Assembly: GCA_000165345.1 (NCBI GenBank)
Contig: CM000434.1
Span: 128,001-192,000, forward strand
Reading direction: 5' to 3'
Length of the DNA stretch: 64,000 nt
The notes below the pieces were generated by a model, which saw nothing but the letters and a program-made list of their open reading frames with translations, had not been told where the DNA came from and did no database searches. This document shows positions 12,788-60,010 of the stretch, in pieces. The position numbers and the translations under genes were made by a program. Within the stretch, counting starts at the first letter, position 1; every line of letters begins with the position of its first letter.

Positions 12788-15700
12788 TTGAATCCAGAGT
12801 GTGATGTTATTTATTTTCAGTTGAATAATAGAATTGTGACGGAAAATTTTAATATTGGAGGATTATCAGTTTTAGACTATGTGGTTAGAAGTTCAGGTAT
12901 ACCATTAATTAGACAAGAAGTAGAAATAAGAAAAGTTATATCAAAGAAAGATATTGAATTAACAATAGTTGAATTATCTTTGCCAGAAATACATATATCA
13001 CCAAGAGATTTATGGTATTATGAGAAATCTTTAGTTGGTAAAATACTTTATAATGGAATTTCACCACAAATTACTTATGAAATTAATCAATATTTACCAA
13101 TAAGTATTACAAGAATGGGAAATGAAAATGAAGAAAATAATATGAATAAAAAAATAATCATTTCAGGATTAGTTACAGATGATACTACATTCTTTATAAG
13201 ACCAAAGTCTGTAAGAATTATATTTATTGTGATTATTTCAAAAGAATTTTTTTGTTTTTCCAGTAATGGTTTTCCATGGTGGAGAGGAATTATTTCATTT
13301 TTCAAAGAATATTTAACATCAAATAAACAATCTATAGAGCATCATTATATTACAATACTTTTAGCATGGAAAGTTAAAGAAGAAACAAAAACTATGGATT
13401 ATTATCAAGTTTTTTGGGAGGGAGTTCTTTCTCATATTACATTAAGTCAAACAAGTATTAATAAATTTGTTGAGAAATTAAGAAATATAATGATTTCATT
13501 TCAAAAAAATCAGAATCTAATTAAGAGTTTAGTATCATATTGTGAATCAAATATTTTGGAATCTATTAATCTTGCAGTAACACAATTACAAAATGATTTA
13601 ATTGATGGATCTATTGTATGGACAGGAAGAAATATTAAAGTACTTAGTTCAGGTCCTCCAATTATTATAAGTGACTTAGAAAATTATCAAAGATTACTAA
13701 ATTTATCAAAAATCACAGAAGTTAGATTTCTAAAGACATCAATTACTTGTGATTTTATATCTTTCTCTGAGCTTAATTGGTATCATTTTTTAACTATATA
13801 TATAGTAAAAATAAAAAATAGTCTTTATCAAGAAACACTTAAAGAAATTAAATTAAAGATTCCAATAACAATTTCATATTACAAGATTAAAAATATATTT
13901 TATAATGATTATAATGGCAATTTCAACTTATCATCTACAATTACCTTGTTAGATGAATATATAGATGATAAGTTTTATTTTAAACAAAGTAAAATTCAAA
14001 TTGAAGATAATGAAAATGAAGATGATTGTGAAAGTGATATTGATTTAATTTTAAGTGGTAAAGATTTAGTGGTGAGAAATATATCAAGCTTTGTAAATAA
14101 AAAAGAAAGTTTTGAATATAGTTTGAGTGACTTTGATAATTTTTCTAAAGATCTTTCTTCAAATAATAAGCCTAAAGATTATCAGTATATAAATGAAATT
14201 GAATTATTAAGTCATTCACTTGGAACTTTATTATTGCCTTTAACTACAAGTAACTTAAGTAAAATTGATATTGAGAAAAATATTTCTAATTCAAAGGATT
14301 TAATATTAAGTGAGATTCAAAGAACATCAAATTGGACATTAACTCCCAGAAAAGAGTTGTTTCTGGCATATATTTGGAAAAATTATCGAATAAATAATCC
14401 AAAACTGATTAATTGTGATTTTATCGATTATTCAACATTTACTGATAAATCTGAAAATAAAGATATAAATATTGAGATTTTAAGATTAATATATTACGAA
14501 TTGATTGTACACAGAATGTCAATGTCTTTTCAAATTTCAACTTTCAAATCAAATAGTATTATAAGTCATTATAATTCAGAAAATATACAAATGTTAAAGT
14601 GCTATAATAGCTTAAGTAATAATATTATTCCAAATTATAATTGCATTCACCAATTAATTTTACTTAAAGAAGATAATAATATTTTAGTTGAAGTTATTGA
14701 TGCAATTATACAAGATAATAGTAATAACAGTACTAGCGCTGGAATTGGTATCAGTACAAGTACAAATACAAATATTAATACTGGTAATTGTACTAAAAAT
14801 GATAATATGAGCTCAAATTTGAATTCAAATATTATTAATAATAGCTCAAATAATAATGATAATGGTAATAACAAAAATGAAACATTTTCTATTGAAGTAA
14901 ATCAAGAAAATAATTCAGTACCATTTTATACATTTCTACCAAAATCTATTATTAATTCACAAGATATTAATGAAAATGAATTAAAAAATATAATAATTAA
15001 TTACAAATATGAATATTTTCTTTATAGAAGTAAAAACCATGACTACAATGATATAATTTCTGAAAAGCCGTTAAAAGGTAAATATATTAAATACTATACA
15101 ATTTTTAATAATTTNNCTAATGTTAACTTTAGTACAGNGGANGANATNNNNGTCTNGCAANGNGANATTCCTTTTATTAATGAACTCATAAATGAATCAT
15201 TTAATGAATTACTTAATTACAACTTTGACAAGAATAATTTGGATTATTATTATCTTTTAACATCATATATATCTGGCTTATCAATCAGTTACATTCACTT
15301 TGCATTTATTCCTTTTGTTAAAACTAATAATACTAGTACAAATATTATTAATTTCTACACCAATAAATCTGAACAAAATAAAAATGTTACTAATGATATT
15401 TTAAATTTTGATCAAGATAATAAATTTGAAATTTTAGATTGTTATTCAAATTATTACAAAGATTGTTGTTTGGCAAGTATTCTTAATAATTGGATTAAAA
15501 TTAATTCAGTAAATAATGATCAATTAAAGGAAATGGTTGATTATAATATTGGTAAGATTGATGATGAATGTTTAAATATGAAAAATTTAAAGAAGATTTC
15601 AGAAATTAATATCAAAAGTTTAATCAAATCATTAGAATCATTCTTTTTTAAAAATGCACCTTCAAATATTGATCATTCATTTAATATTGAAATTATGAAT

Positions 15701-16264
15701 GATCATAATTATTTGAAAAATGAAAGAAAATCTATAAAAATTTTATATTCTTGGTGTGAGACTTTTGAACATATTAAAGAAGAATATGAATCTGAATCAA
15801 AAGAAAAATACAGGGAAATTAATCTTAATTNTAACAATAATAACAATAATAATAATAATATTAATGTTAATCATAATGGTATTGATAATATTGATACCAA
15901 TAATTTTGAACCTATTAATTGGTTTGTAATATACTATGATTCTATATGGCATTCTCTTTTACCATTAAAATTTTCAATTGGGTGGTTAACTTGTCCATCA
16001 ATTCTAATTTCAAGAATTGTAAGAAAACTTAAATCAATTCTACTCAATTATAACTTTACATTAATGCAATTAAGATCATCTGATGTCTATTCATCATATG
16101 AAATTTTTCCAGACAACTCAATCTTATCATCATATACTCCATTAAATCCACCATATCTTATCAAATTCAAAAAATCTATTTCAAATAACACTTTGAAATT
16201 ATTACTTAAAAAATTTATATCTTTTCCACTTTCTTTACAACTTATATATTTNGNNCAAAGGTAA
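12788..16264 (+). CDS. Large hypothetical protein (at least 1158 aa), N/I/S-rich. The ORF is interrupted by ambiguous bases. The annotated start is a TTG, so the true 5' end is uncertain.
   Basis: Long uninterrupted ORF with a coding-like, non-repetitive N-terminal half. Runs of n at 15115-15170, 15830 and 16252-16260 give X residues. The first codon at 12788 is TTG, not ATG. A candidate upstream ATG exon is discussed in the findings. I recognise no family. Confidence 0.5.
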   Translation: MNPECDVIYFQLNNRIVTENFNIGGLSVLDYVVRSSGIPLIRQEVEIRKVISKKDIELTIVELSLPEIHISPRDLWYYEKSLVGKILYNGISPQITYEINQYLPISITRMGNENEENNMNKKIIISGLVTDDTTFFIRPKSVRIIFIVIISKEFFCFSSNGFPWWRGIISFFKEYLTSNKQSIEHHYITILLAWKVKEETKTMDYYQVFWEGVLSHITLSQTSINKFVEKLRNIMISFQKNQNLIKSLVSYCESNILESINLAVTQLQNDLIDGSIVWTGRNIKVLSSGPPIIISDLENYQRLLNLSKITEVRFLKTSITCDFISFSELNWYHFLTIYIVKIKNSLYQETLKEIKLKIPITISYYKIKNIFYNDYNGNFNLSSTITLLDEYIDDKFYFKQSKIQIEDNENEDDCESDIDLILSGKDLVVRNISSFVNKKESFEYSLSDFDNFSKDLSSNNKPKDYQYINEIELLSHSLGTLLLPLTTSNLSKIDIEKNISNSKDLILSEIQRTSNWTLTPRKELFLAYIWKNYRINNPKLINCDFIDYSTFTDKSENKDINIEILRLIYYELIVHRMSMSFQISTFKSNSIISHYNSENIQMLKCYNSLSNNIIPNYNCIHQLILLKEDNNILVEVIDAIIQDNSNNSTSAGIGISTSTNTNINTGNCTKNDNMSSNLNSNIINNSSNNNDNGNNKNETFSIEVNQENNSVPFYTFLPKSIINSQDINENELKNIIINYKYEYFLYRSKNHDYNDIISEKPLKGKYIKYYTIFNNXXNVNFSTXXXXXVXQXXIPFINELINESFNELLNYNFDKNNLDYYYLLTSYISGLSISYIHFAFIPFVKTNNTSTNIINFYTNKSEQNKNVTNDILNFDQDNKFEILDCYSNYYKDCCLASILNNWIKINSVNNDQLKEMVDYNIGKIDDECLNMKNLKKISEINIKSLIKSLESFFFKNAPSNIDHSFNIEIMNDHNYLKNERKSIKILYSWCETFEHIKEEYESESKEKYREINLNXNNNNNNNNNINVNHNGIDNIDTNNFEPINWFVIYYDSIWHSLLPLKFSIGWLTCPSILISRIVRKLKSILLNYNFTLMQLRSSDVYSSYEIFPDNSILSSYTPLNPPYLIKFKKSISNNTLKLLLKKFISFPLSLQLIYXXQR

Positions 16265-17520
16265 TTCTATTTCAAGATTTTTTTCTTGNGGAATNCTCAT
16301 AGTATATATTCATTGGAATTAAATCAAAATGCTATATTGGTAAGAATTTAATTATTATCAATATTTTGGAAAAATCCATTTTCAATATGATTCATTTTCC
16401 TATACTTAAATGTCCTTGGTTCAAGTTCAATGTTTGATCCAAGTTGGAGAAATNATATATTTCATTTTCATTTNAAACATATCAAAATAATTGTCAAAAA
16501 CATGCATATTNACCGGTNAAATNACAATTACATGCAATTTTGGTTAAATGAAAGCCCGCCNTGTCTTGAAAAATATNACTATAGAATTAAATACAAAAAG
16601 GCAAAAATNNNCACAAAAAAAAAAAANGTTNTAATTAANGNAAAAATTTTGAATTTTGGTGATTTTTTTTGTGTGGAGATGGTAAAAAANAGTGAAAAAT
16701 ACGTTGATTAACTTTGATTAATGTAGAAAANAANTAGTGACACTTGGTAGCTTGGAAAGCATTAAATTAAAGCTTGGTAAGAATTNTTTNTGAGAAAATT
16801 AATGGAATTNAACAANGAAAATTTAATTTANAACTAANAGTCATTTTTGAATCANAAGATGATANAATATTNAAACTTATCACTGATTATATTCATTTAA
16901 TGAATAGAAGAGTATGTGGTNGAAATCAAAATAATAATGATACTAATTCTCTGNATATTATGTGATNCAATAATTCAAGAATGTGAAACAAAGAATGGTA
17001 AGAAGAAATTTACTGTATTATTATCAAAAAGTGAAGATTTGGAAATTATTTCAAATGAAATGGATTCACAAAATAATCAAGATACTGGTCTATTATATTA
17101 ATTGGAAAATAAGAGATAGAACAAAANCACTATGAATTAGTGGGATTATTATCTCAATCAATTATTTCTGAGTTTATTTTTCCAAACTCTATTCTACAAT
17201 ATTCAAATTCTAGATTATTTTTAACTTTATTATCATCCAATAATCAAGAATTAATATGGAGTTCTAATACTTTCTTAATGAATAATTTTATTAAATACAA
17301 GACAATTGATGAAGTAGAAAATAATCAAATAAATGATGATAATACAATGATATATTTAACTACTTTACAAAGTAATAATGGTAATAGTAATGGAAACCTT
17401 TTTATGTTTACAATGAATCAAAAAATAGAATAATCAATAAAAACCAAGTTAAGTTTTGAAGGTATTAAAAAATATAAAATTAAAGAGATTATTGAAAGAA
17501 GTATTAGATTACATAGATTA
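16265..17520 (+). other. Low-quality stretch with many n bases. It contains fragmentary + strand ORFs (16774-17101, 17140-17433) that may belong to a single gene, possibly continuous with the flanking ORFs.
   Basis: Dozens of ambiguous bases. The ORF pieces lie in different frames with coding-like segments (ECETKNGKKKFTVLLSKSEDLEIISNEMD; LTTLQSNNGNSNG). A reliable gene model is not possible from this sequence. Confidence 0.25.
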
Positions 17521-18321: not shown

Positions 18322-19211
<890 letters not shown>

Positions 19212-19291
19212 CTAAAGAATATAAATAAAATAAAATATTAAAGTTATTGAATAATTTTTTTTTTATATTAAATTAAATTAAACTAACTTAC
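19212..19291 (-). other. 80-nt spliceosomal intron of the ATP synthase alpha gene (GTAAGTTAGTTT...TTTATATTCTTTAG)
   Basis: On the minus strand the reading frame TAT G|GTAAGT ... TCTTTAG|AT GCT TTA AAA TAT restores the conserved alpha-subunit sequence [44 protein letters not shown]. Without splicing, an in-frame stop follows the donor. The donor is the consensus GTAAGT. The acceptor is a pyrimidine-rich tract ending TAG. Confidence 0.85.
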
Positions 19292-20321
19292 CATATTTTT
19301 CCAGAATTTTAACAATTTGAGCAACACTTGATCTTTTTTGACCAATAGCAACATATATACAATATTTTCTGGTTTTAATATCATCATAAAATTTTCTTTG
19401 ATTAAGAATAATATCTAAAACAAGAGAAGTTTTACCAGTTTGTCTATCACCAACAATAGCTTCTCTTTGTCCTAATCCAATAGGTATAAGAGAATCAATA
19501 AATTTTATACCAGTAATAAGTTGTTCATTAATAGGTTTTCTATCCATAATACCTGGAGCTTTAACATCAATTTCTCTTTTTTCTAAAGAAATAATGGAAG
19601 GTTTACCATCAATAGGATTTCCTAAAGCATCAACGACTCTACCAAGAAGTTCTTTACCAACTGGACAATTAACAATAGTATTGGTTGAGATAACTTGATC
19701 TCCTTTTCTAATATTTCTATCTTCACCTAATATAACAATACCAACATGATCATTTTCAAGATTTAATGCCATACCTTTTTCTCCAGATGAAAATTCAACT
19801 AATTCTCCATATTTTACTGATCTAATACCATCAACTTGTGCAATTCCATCAGCAACAGATATTACTTGACCAATTCTTTTATTATTATCTTCATGAATTG
19901 TTGTTGTTGAATAATAAGAGGAAAAATGAGTATTTAGATATGAAGATGGTGGAAATAATGATGAAAATAATAATTGTTTATTAAGAAGAGTATTATTGGA
20001 ATAAAAAAATGGTGAATATGAATATGAATTATTATAGAAAGAATTGATATTATTTATAGAAAATGAATAACTTGGGATTTTGTAATATTTTGAAGATACT
20101 TTATTTAATATATTGTAATTTTTATTGTTATTGTTATTTTTAATATTATATATTATAATTTTATTAATAAGATGTCCAAAAAATCCAAAACGATGATTAT
20201 AATTCTTTGAAATATATTGATTAATTCCATAAATGTATTTTGGGATAATATTATAAAAAGAAGTACAATAGCAATGATTAAATAATTTCAGAGCATTAAT
20301 TGAGTTTCTATTAATAATCAT
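19292..20321 (-). CDS. ATP1: ATP synthase F1 alpha subunit, exon 1. It carries a roughly 140-residue N/S/Y-rich N-terminal extension followed by the conserved N-terminal beta-barrel and the Walker A motif (P-loop).
   Basis: [73 protein letters not shown] and [23 protein letters not shown]. The exon ends with the G of a phase-1 codon immediately before GTAAGT. Confidence 0.9.
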
Positions 20322-20566
20322 TTTTCTATTGCTTCTTTTCTTCTTTAATTACATATATAAATATTTTCTTTTAAATTAAAAAAAAAAAAAAAAAGATCAA
20401 CTTTTTAAATACAATATAATATATTGGTTTTGTTATAAGTAATAATTTACATTTTATTAATATTTTAAATGAATTATTTCTTGAATATTATAATATCTCG
20501 ACATATAATACATGTTTTAATATTTTTTTAATTTCCAAAAAAAATATTTTTTTTTTAAATAAAATA

Positions 20567-30000: not shown

Positions 30001-30567
30001 TACCGATATTTAATATTCAAATAAATGTAAAGTTTTTCGAATGCTTTTTTTTATGTATCACTCTTCCTTTCTTTATTTCGTTGTGGTTTTTGTTTCTATT
30101 CTTTTATTATTCTTCTTTTATATATATATTAGTATATATAAACAATTTTTACTTGAATATAATTTCTTCATTTCTTATACTTTAATGAAACATTTTGTTT
30201 TATTTAAAAAAAAATAAAATGTTATATTTATATTTATTGAATAATTATTGAAGAAATATTTTTAACTTCAATTTACTTTATCTATTTTAGATTATAATTC
30301 TCATTCTTCTTTAATGTATATCTTCGTAAACTTTAATAAAAGAATTGTTAATTTTATTATATAAATAAATATATTTAATTGGAATATTATTACTTAAATT
30401 TTCTTTTCGCTTTTTTTTCTTTTTTTCTCTCCCCCCCCTTTTTCTTGAATTTCTTAACATGAAATTCGATACCTCTTTTCTTTAAATTAAAAAAAAAAAG
30501 TATTCCCCCTATAATTATTTTTTCGTTACCTTTTTTTAAATAAGGTACCTATATTATCATCCAATTC

Positions 30568-43466: not shown

Positions 43467-44525
43467 TTAGAAATCTGCATTCAAATCAAACTTTTGGTCA
43501 TCTTGATTGACCATAACTCCAGCCATTTGATATTCACCAACTCTCTTTTCGAAGAAGTTAGTTTTACCTTGAAGTGAAATAAGGTCCATCCAATCAAAAG
43601 GATTAGAAACGTTGTAGATTTTTGGAATATCCAAGGCAAAAAGTAATCTATCAGCAACAAATTCAATATATTGGGCCATAAGTCTCGAATTCATACCAAT
43701 AAGATCAACAGGAAGAGAGTCACAAAGAAAGTTTCTTTCAACTTCAACAGCTTCTGATATGATTTGTTGTACTCTAGGAGCTGGTAATTTAAATTTAAGG
43801 GCTTTATATATTAAACAAGCAAAATCAGCATGGAGACCTTCATCACGACTAATAAGTTCATTAGAAAATGTGAGTCCAGGCATAAGTCCACGTTTTTTAA
43901 GCCAAAAAATTGCACAAAAGCTACCAGAAAATAGAATTCCTTCAACAGCACAGAATCCAATAATTCTTTCAGCAAAAGATCGCTCAGAATTCATCCATTT
44001 AGTTGCCCATTCTGCTTTCTTTTTTACAGCTTCAATATGAGAAATTGCTTCAAAGAGCATTTGACGTTCTTTAATTTCAGTAATATATCTATCAATAAGT
44101 AATGAATAAGTTTCACTATGTATTTGTTCAATAGACATTTGAAAAGCATAATACATTCTAGCTTCCGGTATTTGTATTTCTCTAAGGAAATTTACTGCTA
44201 AGTTTTCCATAACAATACCATCACTTGCAGCAAAGAATGCTAAAACATATTTGATAAAATGTCTTTCAGGGTCTTTAAGACTTTCCCAATCTCTAGTATC
44301 TTGACTTAGATCAATTTCTTCAGTAACCCAAAACGACGCTTCAGCTTTTTTATACATTGACCAAATATCTTTAATTAATTCTTTCAATTCATTTCTATTT
44401 TCTCGGCTGTATTTAAGCATTGGTTCATTAACTTGATTTATTTTTACTTCATTCACAAGTTTTTCAATATTTTCTTCATCTTTTGTTTCCTTTGTTAAAA
44501 TTACATTATTATTTTCCTCTGTCAT
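43467..44525 (-). CDS. RNR2: Ribonucleotide reductase small subunit (R2), apparently catalytically competent, 352 aa
   Basis: [16 protein letters not shown] with the Asp ligand. [25 protein letters not shown] with the Glu and His ligands and the radical Tyr (E-x2-H-x3-Y). [23 protein letters not shown] and [10 protein letters not shown] with the second Glu and His pair. The C-terminus ends ...KFDLNADF, the R1-binding tail. Confidence 0.93.
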
Positions 44526-45419: not shown

Positions 45420-46439
45420 ATGAATGAATCAAAGAAAGAATTATTAGAACAGCAAAAAAATGAATCAATCTTATTAGATAATCCTTTTAGATGGGTTTTA
45501 TTTCCAATAAAATATAGTAGATTATGGAGTTTGTATAAAAAATATGAGGTATCATTTTGGACAGCAGAAGTAATATCACCAATGGAAGATAAGACAAAAT
45601 TAATGAATATGGACGAAAAATTACTTGATTATATTGAAATGGCCTTTGCAAAACGTATTTATATTGATAATACATGCTTAGATACTGTATTGTTAACATG
45701 TGAATTATTAGGACAAGTACAAGTACCAGAAGCAAGAGGTTACTTTTCATTTACAATGTGTATGGAGAATATATATAAGGAATTATTTATGAATTATGTT
45801 GAAATGATACGTAAAAATAAGGAAAAGATTGAAAGGACAGATGAAGTGGAAAAGAAGGATGAGAATAATTTAAATAGTAAAATATCTAAAGAAGAATATG
45901 AATATAATTTAGAGAAGAAATTGAATGAATTAGAAGATTTTACAAAAATGAAGGAATTAGTTGGTAATTTTTACGATGAAGATACTTTATTTAGTGAAAA
46001 ACTTATCTATTATGTAATAATTAAAAAGATATTCTCATCTAGTATTCATTTACTTAGATTATCTTTTTCAATGAGAAATATATCAGAATCTGAATTACCT
46101 ACTCAACTTTGTGATGGTTTAGATAGAATACGTAGAGATGAACAATATCAAGTTGAGTTTTGTTTAAGTATTGCAAAATCTATGAAAACTAAACCAAGTA
46201 ATGATCAAGTAGTTAATTTATTAGAGCAAGCTATTATGTTAGAGAAGAACTTTATATTTTCAATTGTAGATCCACAAGTTCTTCAAATTGAAAGAGAAGA
46301 TATTGTTGCTTTTCTTTTATTTAATGCTGATGAAATACTTGTAGATTTAAAGTATCCAAGACAATTCAATGTTTCTAATCCATTCATAAATATTATGAAC
46401 GATTTTCCGTGCTCCTTCTCAAGAAGAAGCTGTTGCTAG
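45420..46439 (+). CDS. Divergent R2-like paralogue lacking the di-iron ligand His and the radical Tyr. It is a probable catalytically inactive R2, analogous to the yeast Rnr4-type partner subunit. The 3' end is probably frameshifted.
   Basis: The R2 fold blocks are conserved: FPIKYSRLWSLYKKYEVSFWTAE, VQVPEARGYFSFTMCMENIYKELF, ILVDLKYPRQFNVSNPF. In the ENIHSEMY motif the His is replaced by Tyr and the Tyr by Phe (ENIYKELF). The first Asp-ligand region (AFAKRIYIDN) is also degenerate. Confidence 0.8.
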   Translation: MNESKKELLEQQKNESILLDNPFRWVLFPIKYSRLWSLYKKYEVSFWTAEVISPMEDKTKLMNMDEKLLDYIEMAFAKRIYIDNTCLDTVLLTCELLGQVQVPEARGYFSFTMCMENIYKELFMNYVEMIRKNKEKIERTDEVEKKDENNLNSKISKEEYEYNLEKKLNELEDFTKMKELVGNFYDEDTLFSEKLIYYVIIKKIFSSSIHLLRLSFSMRNISESELPTQLCDGLDRIRRDEQYQVEFCLSIAKSMKTKPSNDQVVNLLEQAIMLEKNFIFSIVDPQVLQIEREDIVAFLLFNADEILVDLKYPRQFNVSNPFINIMNDFPCSFSRRSCC

Positions 46440-47073
46440 ACAAACTCTTACACAAACTCTTAAAGCTGCTCATTATAAAGCTTACCTAGAAATTTTTAGC
46501 AATCAATTGTCAACTTCTCAAGATTTCTAATTCACACTGNANNNNNAGTTTTTTTTTTGATTCTTACTAATTATTATCTATAATTATTAGAAAATAATAT
46601 ATTAATGTTATTAATAATTCAAATTGTTTATATTAATTCTTAATCTTTTATTACTTAACATAATATGAAGATCCAAATCGAAATATTAAACAATTGATTT
46701 GAAATAGAAGTAAAAGATATTAAAACTATTAAAAAAAAGAAAATAGGAATAGAGAATAGAGAATAAATATATGAACTAATAATAATATATATAAACATTG
46801 AAAGTAAAATAAATAAGGAAATAGATATTTTTCTTTTGACACTAAATTTATTTATTATCCTAATAACTATATAAAGTGTCCATATATTATTGTTATTATA
46901 TTTTACATATATTTTTCCTGTAAAAATAAATTATGTTTAAAATCAACTCAACTCAATCTTTTATTTCAAAAATAACAATAATGTTTAAAACAATAAATCT
47001 TTCATATCATAACCCTTTTTTTTCAACTTTTCATTTATTTTTTCTCCACTATAAAAAAATGACGTGTCAAAGC

Positions 47074-49689: not shown

Positions 49690-50796
49690 ATGTCAAAATA
49701 CACATTCACTGAATATAGAAGATTGAATAATTCTATATTCAGATTGGATGTATTTCCATTCATTACTATTTATATTGTTTTAATTTCAATCTTATTAGGA
49801 GAAATCTTCAGTTTAAGTAAAACAATCACTTATAAAGATGTTTTTGATTCATTCATTTATTTAATAAATTTCATACAAAATCTTAATAATTTAAATAATA
49901 CCATAAATTCGGTACCAGTACAAAATAATGAAATATTTAATGATTTAATATCAAATAATACAAATTATTTAAATGCTTCTGAATTGGATGATTCAAATTT
50001 AAGTGAAGAATTACAACTTATTATTGATAATGTTCCAATTAAATATATTGTTGCAATTTTTATCACAATTTTAATAAATTTATTAACTTTTCTTATGACT
50101 CAATGGAATTTGAAATTTAAAAGTATTATTTGTTTTAGTAAAATAAAAAAAAAATCAAATGGAACTTGTACAAGTTTAAATAATAAAACCACTACACATA
50201 TTATGGTAAATAGTTCCAAATATCCAAGTGAACTTTGTCCTTTAAAATATTCAACATGTATTGAACATGTTGGAAAACTTAAAGATTTTTATTCTTTAAC
50301 AAAAATTAAATCATGTTCAATTATTAATATGAACAAATCTTTTATTATACAAGTTGATGCAATTGATTATTATAAATATAAATCAGAAATTGAGAAAATT
50401 CTTTTAAAAAATATTAATAAAAGTGATAATTCCAATTTATTACCAAATTCTTCAAATATTAATTGGATAAAATTGATTAATTATGAAAAGAAAACTTTTA
50501 TATATAATAAATCAAAAGAAACTTTTATTAAAGCAAATTATCCAATAAATCTTCCAATAAAATCATATTTTGATCAATTAATACATAAAGGTGGTTTAAA
50601 TATGAATGAAATTATACTTCATAATAATTTATATGGAATTAATAATTATGAAATACCAAAAGAAAAATTTCTGGATTTATTTATTGAACAAATTATATCA
50701 CCTTTTTTCTTATTTCAAATATTTTGTGTATTACTATGGATACTTGATGAATATTGGCAAATGAGTTTATTTACTTTATTTATGTTATGTACTTAA
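49690..50796 (+). CDS. P5A-type P-type ATPase (Spf1/ATP13A1-like), N-terminal portion up to an in-frame TAA
   Basis: P5A N-terminal membrane region. It ends ...DEYWQMSLFTLFMLCT*, where Spf1/ATP13A1 has DEYWYYSLFTLFMLVAFEA. Confidence 0.8.
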   Translation: MSKYTFTEYRRLNNSIFRLDVFPFITIYIVLISILLGEIFSLSKTITYKDVFDSFIYLINFIQNLNNLNNTINSVPVQNNEIFNDLISNNTNYLNASELDDSNLSEELQLIIDNVPIKYIVAIFITILINLLTFLMTQWNLKFKSIICFSKIKKKSNGTCTSLNNKTTTHIMVNSSKYPSELCPLKYSTCIEHVGKLKDFYSLTKIKSCSIINMNKSFIIQVDAIDYYKYKSEIEKILLKNINKSDNSNLLPNSSNINWIKLINYEKKTFIYNKSKETFIKANYPINLPIKSYFDQLIHKGGLNMNEIILHNNLYGINNYEIPKEKFLDLFIEQIISPFFLFQIFCVLLWILDEYWQMSLFTLFMLCT

Positions 50797-50799
50797 GAG

Positions 50800-53700
50800 G
50801 CTCAAATGGTATTTAGAAGACTTAAAGAATCTGATGAAGTTAGAAATATGAGAAGACCATCATGTTTTATTCTTGTATATAGAGAATATACTTGGAAATA
50901 TATTAATACTGATCATTTATTACCTGGTGATATTATTGCAATTTCATCCACAATTTCTTCCAATTCTTTAAAAAATAAGAATTTTGATGAAAATAATAAT
51001 AATAATAATCAAGATGAAGAAGCAGTTTCTATTGCTCCTTGTGATTTTGTATTATTATCTGGAAGTATTACTGTAAATGAAGCAATGCTTACTGGTGAAT
51101 GTACTCCAAAAATGAAAGTATCAATGAATAATGACGAAGATGAAAATGAACAAGATAATAAATTGAATGAAAAGACTTTTGATATTGATGGATTTAAAAA
51201 TCATGTAATATTTGCAGGTACCAATATTATACTTACAAGATCTTCAATTGTTACAGAAAATAAAGAGTTCCAATCTATTATTAAAAAGATTTCAAATGAA
51301 TACCATAATTGTTATAATGTTGATAATATGAACTCTATTAAGAATCCAATGAACTTTAATGAAAAGTATAATAATAATGTCACTTCTTCTTACATTAAAT
51401 ATGATAATGATAAAATGATTTGTATTGGATATGTTCTTAGAACTGGATTTAATACTTATCAAGGAAAATTAATCCGTACAATTTCATCATCAGCTGAAAA
51501 GATCTCATCTAACAGTCTTGAATCACTAATTTTCTTAATGATGTTAATTTTTTGCTCATTAATAGCATCTTCTTATGTACTTTATTATGGAATTAATGAT
51601 CCTTCCAGAAATAAATTCAAATTAATTATCTCCTGCATTCACATTATAACTTCAGTTATTCCTCCAGAATTCCCCATCACACTTTCTGTTGCTGTAACTA
51701 TGGCAGTTGTTCAATTAACCAAAAAAAAGATTTATTGTACTGAACCATTTAGAATTCCATTTGCTGGTAAACTTAGAATATGTGCTTTTGATAAAACTGG
51801 TACTTTAACTAGTGATAAAATGATACCACATGGATTATTTGGAATTAACTTGTATAATAATGATGATACTTCTTGTATTACTTTTGATGATAATGATAAG
51901 TATAGTAATAACAATGAAGATAAGGATGAGATGAACAATAAAAAGTTAGCATCAGTATCGGGATCAAGGCAAGTGTTGGGATCAGAACCAATATCCAATT
52001 CTTCTGTTGATATACCATATTTATCTGATCTTATTATGGGATGTTGTAATGGACTTTCACTTAATGGAAAGACCTTGGTTGGAGATCCTATGGAAAAATC
52101 CATCAAAAAGAAATCATCCTGGAGAATTCATCACTCATCTGAAAATAATTATCATAACATTAAAGATAATTCAACATTTTCAATAGTTAGAAGATATCCT
52201 TTTTCACCAGAAGAACAAAGAATGACCAATATTGGAATTTTGCATATTCCTTCAGAAAAACAAAATTCATCATCAAGTAAATCTCAAACTTCTTCATCTT
52301 CATCTCAATCTCTATCTCCGTCTCATTCTGTAAAATTTCATAAAAGTCTTTCAAAACCTGATCCAAAAACTTATGGTCTTGTCATTTCTAAAGGAAGTCC
52401 AGAAATGATGCTTCAATTCTTTAAAAAAGATCCAGAATTTGATCAAAATTTATACAAAAATGTTGTACATGAATGTACTAAAAAAGGGTATCGTATATTA
52501 GCACTTGGTTCAAAATATTCTTGTATTAATGAAGTTAATAATCATCATTTAAAAAGAGAATTCTTTGAAAATGATTTAATATTTTGTGGTTTTCTTGCAT
52601 TATATTGTCCAATTAAAAAACATTCCAAATCTGTTATTCAAGAACTTAATCAAAGTAATCATCAATGTATTATGATTACTGGTGACAATATTCTTACAGC
52701 TTTCCATGTTGCAAAAAATGTATCAATTACCAATAATTGTAAAGATATACTCATTTTATCAAAATCTGATAATGAAAACTCTAATCATATTAATTATATA
52801 TGGAAATATTCAAATGGTAATATTTTTAATAAATTTGATAATAATTTAACTCATTTAATTCATATTAATAATGAATTTAATATTGGTATTACTGGTAATG
52901 TATTCCAATCTTTTATTGAAGACTTCAAAGAAACCAAAATACTTGAACAATTTCTTTTATTTACAAAAATATATGCAAGAATGTCTCCAAAAAATAAACA
53001 AACTCTTATTAATCTTTATAATAATATGGGTAATATGACTTTAATGTGTGGAGATGGTACCAATGATGTTGGTGCTTTAAAACATTCTCATGTTGGTATT
53101 TCTCTTCTTTCAAATGAATCATCATCAGATTCTAATAATAAAGATAATAATAATTCTCCATTTAATATTAAAAAAAATCAAAAATCCAACTTTTTTGAAA
53201 TTAAAAAAGATATTGAAGCCAGAATTAGACGTGGTGAAAAGCTTACAAAAGCTCAAATTCAACAAGAAATCTTGAAAGAATTCCAAAATATGGATGAAAT
53301 ACCAAAAGTAAAACTTGGAGATGCTTCTATTGCTTCACCTTTTACATATAAAGGTGAATCTCCCAATTGTATTATTAAACTTGTTAGATATGGAAGATCA
53401 ACTTTAACCACAGTATTATTAATGTATAAATTAATGGGATTAAATAGTATTGTATCTGCATTTTCTATGAGTGTATTAGCTCATGATGGAGTTAAATTTG
53501 GTGATTTTCAAACTACTGTAGAATCCATTATTATGAGTGGCTTATTCTTTCTTGTACTTAAAAACAAGCCAGCTAAAAAGCTTGTTCCACAAAAACCACC
53601 AAATAGTATTTTCAGTCCTATGATATTTTTATCATTTATTATTCAAGCATTAATTCATTTATTTGTTATTTATTTTGGATGGAAAATTTCATATTCTTTA

Positions 53701-54072
53701 ATGCCATTAAACTATTCAACAAATATTGATGGACCTTTTGAACCAAATATTATTAATACAACAATGTATTATTTATATACAGCTTGTCACTTAGCTTGTT
53801 TTCTTTCAAATGCACAAGGTCATCCATTTACTACTCCATTATCTGAAAATAAATATCTTATTTACACTTCAGCTTTAGTTATTTCATTCTTAATTACTTC
53901 AATTCTAGGAATATTTCCACATTTAAATATATTATTTTCATTGGTAACTTTACAAAGTAAATATTATCAATCAATTCTAATACTTCTTGTATTATTTGAT
54001 ATTTTTGGTACTCTATTAATTAATCAATTATTTAATCAACTTCATATTTACTTTGACAAATGCAAACATTAA
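50800..54072 (+). CDS. P5A-type P-type ATPase, remainder, in the same frame immediately after the TAA
   Basis: EAQMVFRRLKESDEVRNMRRP... continues the Spf1 alignment (EATLVQQQMRNMSEIRKM). It has PGDIIAIS, TVNEAMLTGECTPKMK, the P5A motif IPPEFPITLS, the phosphorylation site ICAFDKTGTLT, MITGDN and MCGDGTNDVGALK, followed by the C-terminal transmembrane helices. Confidence 0.85.
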   Translation, partial: AQMVFRRLKESDEVRNMRRPSCFILVYREYTWKYINTDHLLPGDIIAISSTISSNSLKNKNFDENNNNNNQDEEAVSIAPCDFVLLSGSITVNEAMLTGECTPKMKVSMNNDEDENEQDNKLNEKTFDIDGFKNHVIFAGTNIILTRSSIVTENKEFQSIIKKISNEYHNCYNVDNMNSIKNPMNFNEKYNNNVTSSYIKYDNDKMICIGYVLRTGFNTYQGKLIRTISSSAEKISSNSLESLIFLMMLIFCSLIASSYVLYYGINDPSRNKFKLIISCIHIITSVIPPEFPITLSVAVTMAVVQLTKKKIYCTEPFRIPFAGKLRICAFDKTGTLTSDKMIPHGLFGINLYNNDDTSCITFDDNDKYSNNNEDKDEMNNKKLASVSGSRQVLGSEPISNSSVDIPYLSDLIMGCCNGLSLNGKTLVGDPMEKSIKKKSSWRIHHSSENNYHNIKDNSTFSIVRRYPFSPEEQRMTNIGILHIPSEKQNSSSSKSQTSSSSSQSLSPSHSVKFHKSLSKPDPKTYGLVISKGSPEMMLQFFKKDPEFDQNLYKNVVHECTKKGYRILALGSKYSCINEVNNHHLKREFFENDLIFCGFLALYCPIKKHSKSVIQELNQSNHQCIMITGDNILTAFHVAKNVSITNNCKDILILSKSDNENSNHINYIWKYSNGNIFNKFDNNLTHLIHINNEFNIGITGNVFQSFIEDFKETKILEQFLLFTKIYARMSPKNKQTLINLYNNMGNMTLMCGDGTNDVGALKHSHVGISLLSNESSSDSNNKDNNNSPFNIKKNQKSNFFEIKKDIEARIRRGEKLTKAQIQQEILKEFQNMDEIPKVKLGDASIASPFTYKGESPNCIIKLVRYGRSTLTTVLLMYKLMGLNSIVSAFSMSVLAHDGVKFGDFQTTVESIIMSGLFFLVLKNKPAKKLVPQKPPNSIFSPMIFLSFIIQALIHLFVIYFGWKISYSLMPLNYSTNIDGPFEPNIINTTMYYLYTACHLACFLSNAQGHPFTTPLSENKYLIYTSALVISFLITSILGIFPHLNILFSLVTLQSKYYQSILILLVLFDIFGTLLINQLFNQLHIYFDKCKH

Positions 54073-54196: not shown

Positions 54197-60010
<5,814 letters not shown>

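Follow-up and report, generated by a model that had tools for sequence, protein, structure and literature searches.

The analyzed sequence, hereafter the window, is a 64-kb stretch of chromosome 6 of the Cryptosporidium parvum IOWA lineage, presumably taken from the 2004 Sanger "Iowa II" assembly. Positions 49690..54072 of its forward strand comprise the full coding region of a P5A-type ATPase gene (cgd6_720, or 6g720), which has 1460 codons and a terminal TAA. Translation of these 1461 codons yields a single internal stop, one TAA between the peptides LFMLCT and EAQMVFRRL, which divides the coding region into the open reading frames (ORFs) 49690..50796 (368 amino acids and the stop) and 50806..54072 (1088 amino acids) of a common frame. 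A preliminary description of this DNA had likewise reported two ORFs of the same frame broken by a lone TAA, and this proved to be the sole interruption. Over the coding stretch, one internal stop in frame 1 compares with 91 in frame 2 and 231 in frame 3, indicating that the internal TAA does not occur in this frame by mere chance. The stop is codon 369 and occupies positions 50794..50796 on the forward strand. The preliminary description was right that it exists but had placed it at 50797-50799, one codon too far downstream, because the end coordinates of the ORFs include the stop; bases 50797-50799 are the adjoining GAG (Glu).

The annotated gene model of the 2004 record covers 50806..54072 on the forward strand and starts at the first ATG past the TAA. 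The corresponding 1088-aa product, which would be missing its N-terminal domain and initial transmembrane helices, is identical in EAZ51499.1 / XP_001388305.1 from C. parvum Iowa II and QOY40949.1 from C. parvum IOWA-ATCC, and related records bear the locus tag 6g720 (= cgd6_720). In contrast to the interrupted copy in the window, an identical, uninterrupted ORF of 1460 amino acids that begins with MSKYTF is open in the IOWA-ATCC, 43IA8, and HLJ assemblies.

The family assignment of the product draws on both sides of the stop. The catalytic P-type motifs FDKTGTLT, ITGDNILTA, and CGDGTNDVGAL are all present in the translation, as is PPEFP, in agreement with the preliminary description, which had listed these four elements as retained. 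Pfam searches assigned the E1-E2_ATPase and Hydrolase domains to the downstream ORF and Cation_ATPase_N to the upstream ORF, and a match to the P5A-specific two-helix hairpin PF23143 at residues 120-152 of the upstream 368-aa ORF fell slightly short of the gathering score (E = 1.7e-5; 25.2 bits against 27). A PDB sequence search with the full-length orthologue retrieved ATP13A1 (E ~1e-170) and Spf1 (E ~1e-153) with far stronger scores than the P5B proteins Ypk9 and ATP13A2 (1e-75 to 1e-65). Database homologues are found eukaryote-wide under the names ATP13A1 or "ER transmembrane helix translocase", and the nearest of them have PF23143. Judged from these motifs and matches, the product of cgd6_720 is a P5A ATPase of the ER transmembrane-helix dislocase type (ATP13A1/Spf1). 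The preliminary description had seen an otherwise intact P5A ATPase and had considered pseudogenisation unlikely; we concur, on the latter point with respect to an old pseudogenisation.

The orthologous locus was then taken from eight other assemblies, namely four of C. parvum, two Logan read-run assemblies, one of C. tyzzeri, and one of C. meleagridis. The window reads ACT TAA GAG across the site, whereas IOWA-ATCC, CpBGF, 43IA8, HLJ, and two Logan read-run assemblies read ACT TTA GAG, and C. tyzzeri and C. meleagridis read ACT TTA GAA. The codon at 50794..50796 is thus TTA (Leu) in every other assembly compared, and the discrepancy comes down to a single base on the forward strand, 50795, which is A in the window and T in all the others. 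The C. hominis proteins P0080, P0083, and P0086 also have Leu at this position. The residue of human ATP13A1 aligned with the stop in the PDB sequence search is Phe (LSMLVAFEASLVQQQM; LVAFEAS), and Spf1 (6xmp) gave a strong match too. The Phe proposed in the preliminary description therefore holds for ATP13A1, while the Cryptosporidium orthologues all have Leu instead. The comparison of the orthologous codon in relatives that the description had suggested gave TTA at all eight loci, two of them from the IOWA lineage itself, which favors a base error. Stop codons are created by 5.7% of the possible single-base changes in the coding sequence, so a random error that makes a stop would be unremarkable, and it is also one that a search for anomalies would readily single out.

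Over the 4383-nt coding sequence, base 50795 is the sole difference between the window and IOWA-ATCC. Besides 50795, a wider comparison of 13.3 kb with the same assembly revealed nothing but an N-rich or error-laden patch (46409-46546), the Ns of 56127-56154, and, at 59071, a gap where the alignment ends. The relatedness of the assemblies is documented within the gene by a genuine missense variant of the IOWA lineage at 50839 on the forward strand (CTT -> GTT, Leu384Val). Its G is common to the window, IOWA-ATCC, and CpBGF, so that these three represent one lineage; the remaining C. parvum and the other species have C at this position, the variant being absent from C. tyzzeri, C. meleagridis, and C. 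hominis.

These data bear directly on the possibility that the IOWA II oocysts sequenced in 2004 truly had a nonsense allele here, fixed in the stock or sampled as a minority variant. The oocyst DNA derived from a population and not from a clone, a circumstance that counts in favor of such an allele, as do the isolation of the base in clean surrounding sequence and the slight differences known among IOWA sub-lines (PMC8744675, PMC12179316). The mutation would be younger than the split between the sequenced sub-line and those of ATCC and Bunch Grass Farm. It would abolish the full-length pump, and the most that could still be made is a 1088-aa product started anew at Met373. Against such an allele, both other IOWA-lineage assemblies, IOWA-ATCC and CpBGF, have TTA, and the copy in the window showed no second degenerative change.

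The intact 1460-aa C. parvum protein (P0081) is present in 31 blocks of the protein collection. In contrast, the 368-aa upstream product has no exact match in this collection of 15 billion proteins, the 1088-aa product is known in the exact look-up only from two NCBI records, and neither of the two occurs in any Logan read-run assembly of the collection, which also speaks against a genuine allele. When C. parvum was compared with C. meleagridis, codons 1-368 gave a dN/dS of 0.22 and codons 370-1460 one of 0.19, at dS values of 0.18 upstream and 0.17 downstream of the stop. With dN/dS equal on both sides, the two parts behave as a single gene subject to purifying selection throughout its length, and selection on both halves is a further argument against a genuine allele. 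Taken together, we consider a real nonsense allele unlikely, and somewhat less likely still is its biological corollary, that a calf-passaged C. parvum line could be propagated without a full-length P5A ATPase. If true, the line would either dispense with the pump or make do with an N-terminally truncated protein re-initiated at Met373.

The preliminary description had left three candidate explanations side by side, a single-base error, an RNA-level event, and programmed read-through. The first, with TTA as the true codon, is the one that agrees with the comparative data, and the other two fared poorly. Programmed read-through, RNA editing, or another form of recoding would restore the full-length protein from a genomic TAA, and its sole support is that the frame continues perfectly in an otherwise intact protein. 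However, the stop is conserved neither at the eight other loci, which all have TTA, nor in the C. hominis proteins, where the residue is Leu; with the stop absent from all relatives, including the same strain lineage, there is nothing conserved to be programmed. The 120 nt downstream of the stop are predicted to fold no better than shuffled sequences (minimum free energy -15.7 vs. -18.0 on average for the shuffles, z = +0.73). The stop context is UAA-GAG-GCU, and UAA-GAG is not known as a read-through motif. Furthermore, among the long ORFs of the window, 19 of 22 end with TAA, as does cgd6_720 in every species. We accordingly regard recoding as highly improbable.

Even less credible, and in our judgment close to negligible, are a tiny intron around the TAA and a variant genetic code in which TAA is a sense codon, which again have the uninterrupted frame and nothing else in their favor. 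The flanking codons are colinear and gap-free with those of the orthologues and human ATP13A1, and a GT..AG unit about the stop would span only 9 nt. A variant code was rejected on codon usage, since only one internal TAA is found in the 1460 codons of frame 1 compared with 56 and 130 off-frame, and TAA is the usual terminator.

Recurrent decay of the N-terminal part was also considered, as the 5' part of the gene is not open in CpBGF and C. tyzzeri, yet neither case speaks for decay. In CpBGF, an A6 run has lost 1 nt (window-equivalent 50406), which shifts the frame, and in C. tyzzeri the 5' part falls where the assembly has a gap filled with Ns. The CpBGF assembly (GCA_035232765.1) has private single-base deletions in A runs at the window-equivalent positions 1241, 1287-1288, 17819, 20178, 20255, 20378, and 50406, those at 20178-20378 coinciding with a shortened gene call. 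These deletions look like homopolymer errors of long reads.

The quality of the 2004 record was assessed from published comparisons and from the window itself. With the assembly identities of Iowa II and IOWA-ATCC taken from PMC12179316, the 2004 Iowa II assembly (GCA_000165345.1) contains 18,558 ambiguous bases, whereas IOWA-ATCC (GCA_015245375.1) contains none, and indels have been described for the former in addition to the ambiguous bases (PMC8744675). Low-quality regions of C. parvum Iowa have been reported to produce split ORFs (Isaza et al., PMC4637869). The 2004 assembly is 99.93% identical to IOWA-ATCC, and IOWA-ATCC differs from BGF by 143 SNVs genome-wide (PMC8744675). By our estimate, 99.93% identity over about 9.1 Mb corresponds to ~6,400 differences, so that the true divergence of sub-lines would be ~45-fold rarer than differences of the 2004 assembly, a ratio that weighs against the genuine allele.

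The window contains 69 scattered Ns and two damaged regions that affect other genes. These Ns and private errors, together with the Iowa II accession of the 1088-aa protein, point to the 2004 assembly as the source of the window. The low-quality patch 15115-17454 comprises about 45 Ns and, at 16260-17454, dozens of window-private substitutions and indels. The errors at 16260-17454 split a vWA_IML1 gene, which is represented in the window by ORF 12788..16264 and fragments and forms a single 1300-aa ORF in IOWA-ATCC, CpBGF, and 43IA8. At 46409-46546, we found a private extra G at 46409, private substitutions at 46480, 46487, 46496, and 46509, and six Ns. The extra G shortens the ribonucleotide-reductase small-subunit ORF 45420..46439 to 339 amino acids, compared with 369 elsewhere.

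Several other features of the window were recorded in the course of this comparison. The two ribonucleotide-reductase small-subunit paralogues, 43467..44525 on the reverse and 45420..46439 on the forward strand, are adjoining and divergent, and are arranged likewise in C. meleagridis and other C. parvum. A 1937-aa condensin-type gene (Cnd1 / NCAPD3 HEAT) at 54197..60010 on the reverse strand contains 12 Ns at 56127-56154, where other assemblies have ordinary bases. Isolated differences at 30085 (G vs. T) and 44809 (C vs. G) are probably intergenic and were seen in comparison with non-IOWA C. parvum only. The reverse-strand ORFs 18322..19125 and 19278..20321 correspond to one ATP-synt_ab gene call of 638-639 amino acids in other assemblies; they are most likely two exons with a short intron and not a disruption.

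Based on these comparisons, we conclude that the internal TAA of cgd6_720 quite probably goes back to a wrong base call or consensus, or to an artefact of cloning, in the 2004 assembly. The A at 50795 is private to this record, the record has other demonstrable errors, and the gene is intact and constrained elsewhere. The organism would then have T at 50795 in place of the recorded A, the true codon would be TTA (Leu369), and the real gene product would be one uninterrupted P5A ATPase of 1460 amino acids. Two points count against an artefact. The base is isolated and lies outside any visibly low-quality patch, the nearest Ns or private differences being ~4.2 kb away on the upstream and ~5.3 kb on the downstream side, and at the assembly level nothing would distinguish an artefact from a true mutation carried by the 2004 oocysts. 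We nonetheless infer that the A arose as an artefact, be it of base calling, of the consensus, or of cloning in E. coli, and that no real allele underlies it.

An artefact of the record would also account for the present state of annotation. The false stop would have led to the 1088-aa model in 2004, when annotators may have called the gene from the first ATG past it, and the truncated model may later have been transferred onto newer genomes with a full open frame. The 1088-aa or a similarly shortened model is found in the C. parvum records QOY40949.1 (IOWA-ATCC), where the DNA is open for 1460 codons, and WRK32668.1 (CpBGF), as well as in TRY51361.1 (C. tyzzeri), CUV06499.1 (C. hominis UdeA01), and KAK9171895.1 (C. 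meleagridis). The variants listed as affecting genes in the comparison of Iowa II with CpBGF (PMC12179316) do not include this gene, presumably because the annotated 1088-aa coding sequence begins only downstream of the site, and a literature search for cgd6_720 found nothing. As biology, the finding has little weight, for it concerns an ordinary, intact, and conserved P5A ATPase. Its value lies in curation, that is, in correcting the gene model to 1460 amino acids, as in WKS78179.1 / KAL5367943.1. We advise that knock-outs, tagging of the "N-terminus", and antibody or drug-target studies be based on the 1460-aa model.

Compared with the split ORFs known from the 2004 Iowa II reference, the case of cgd6_720 is similar in that two further genes are damaged likewise in the same window, but the known lesions of this reference are indels or clusters of Ns, whereas the lesion in the P5A gene is a single isolated substitution. 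The protein itself was compared with its characterized relatives. Human ATP13A1 (PDB 9jbx, 9jbm, and others) and yeast Spf1 (PDB 6xmp) are matched over four stretches that correspond to the membrane, actuator, and phosphorylation domains, and DKTGT, TGDN, and GDGTNDVGA are common to the Cryptosporidium protein and ATP13A1/Spf1. Unlike these two, the Cryptosporidium protein has long Asn/Ser-rich insertions. The M4 signature of P5A ATPases is PP(E/D)xPx(E/D). Human ATP13A1 has PPELPIE at this place, whereas the Cryptosporidium protein has PPEFPIT, in which the first acidic residue is present and the second is Thr. PPEFPIT, located in the peptide VIPPEFPITLS (window ~51730-51750), is found in all four Cryptosporidium species seen, including C. 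hominis, C. tyzzeri, and C. meleagridis. The replacement of the second acidic residue of M4 by Thr may affect substrate handling by the Cryptosporidium pump in comparison with ATP13A1.
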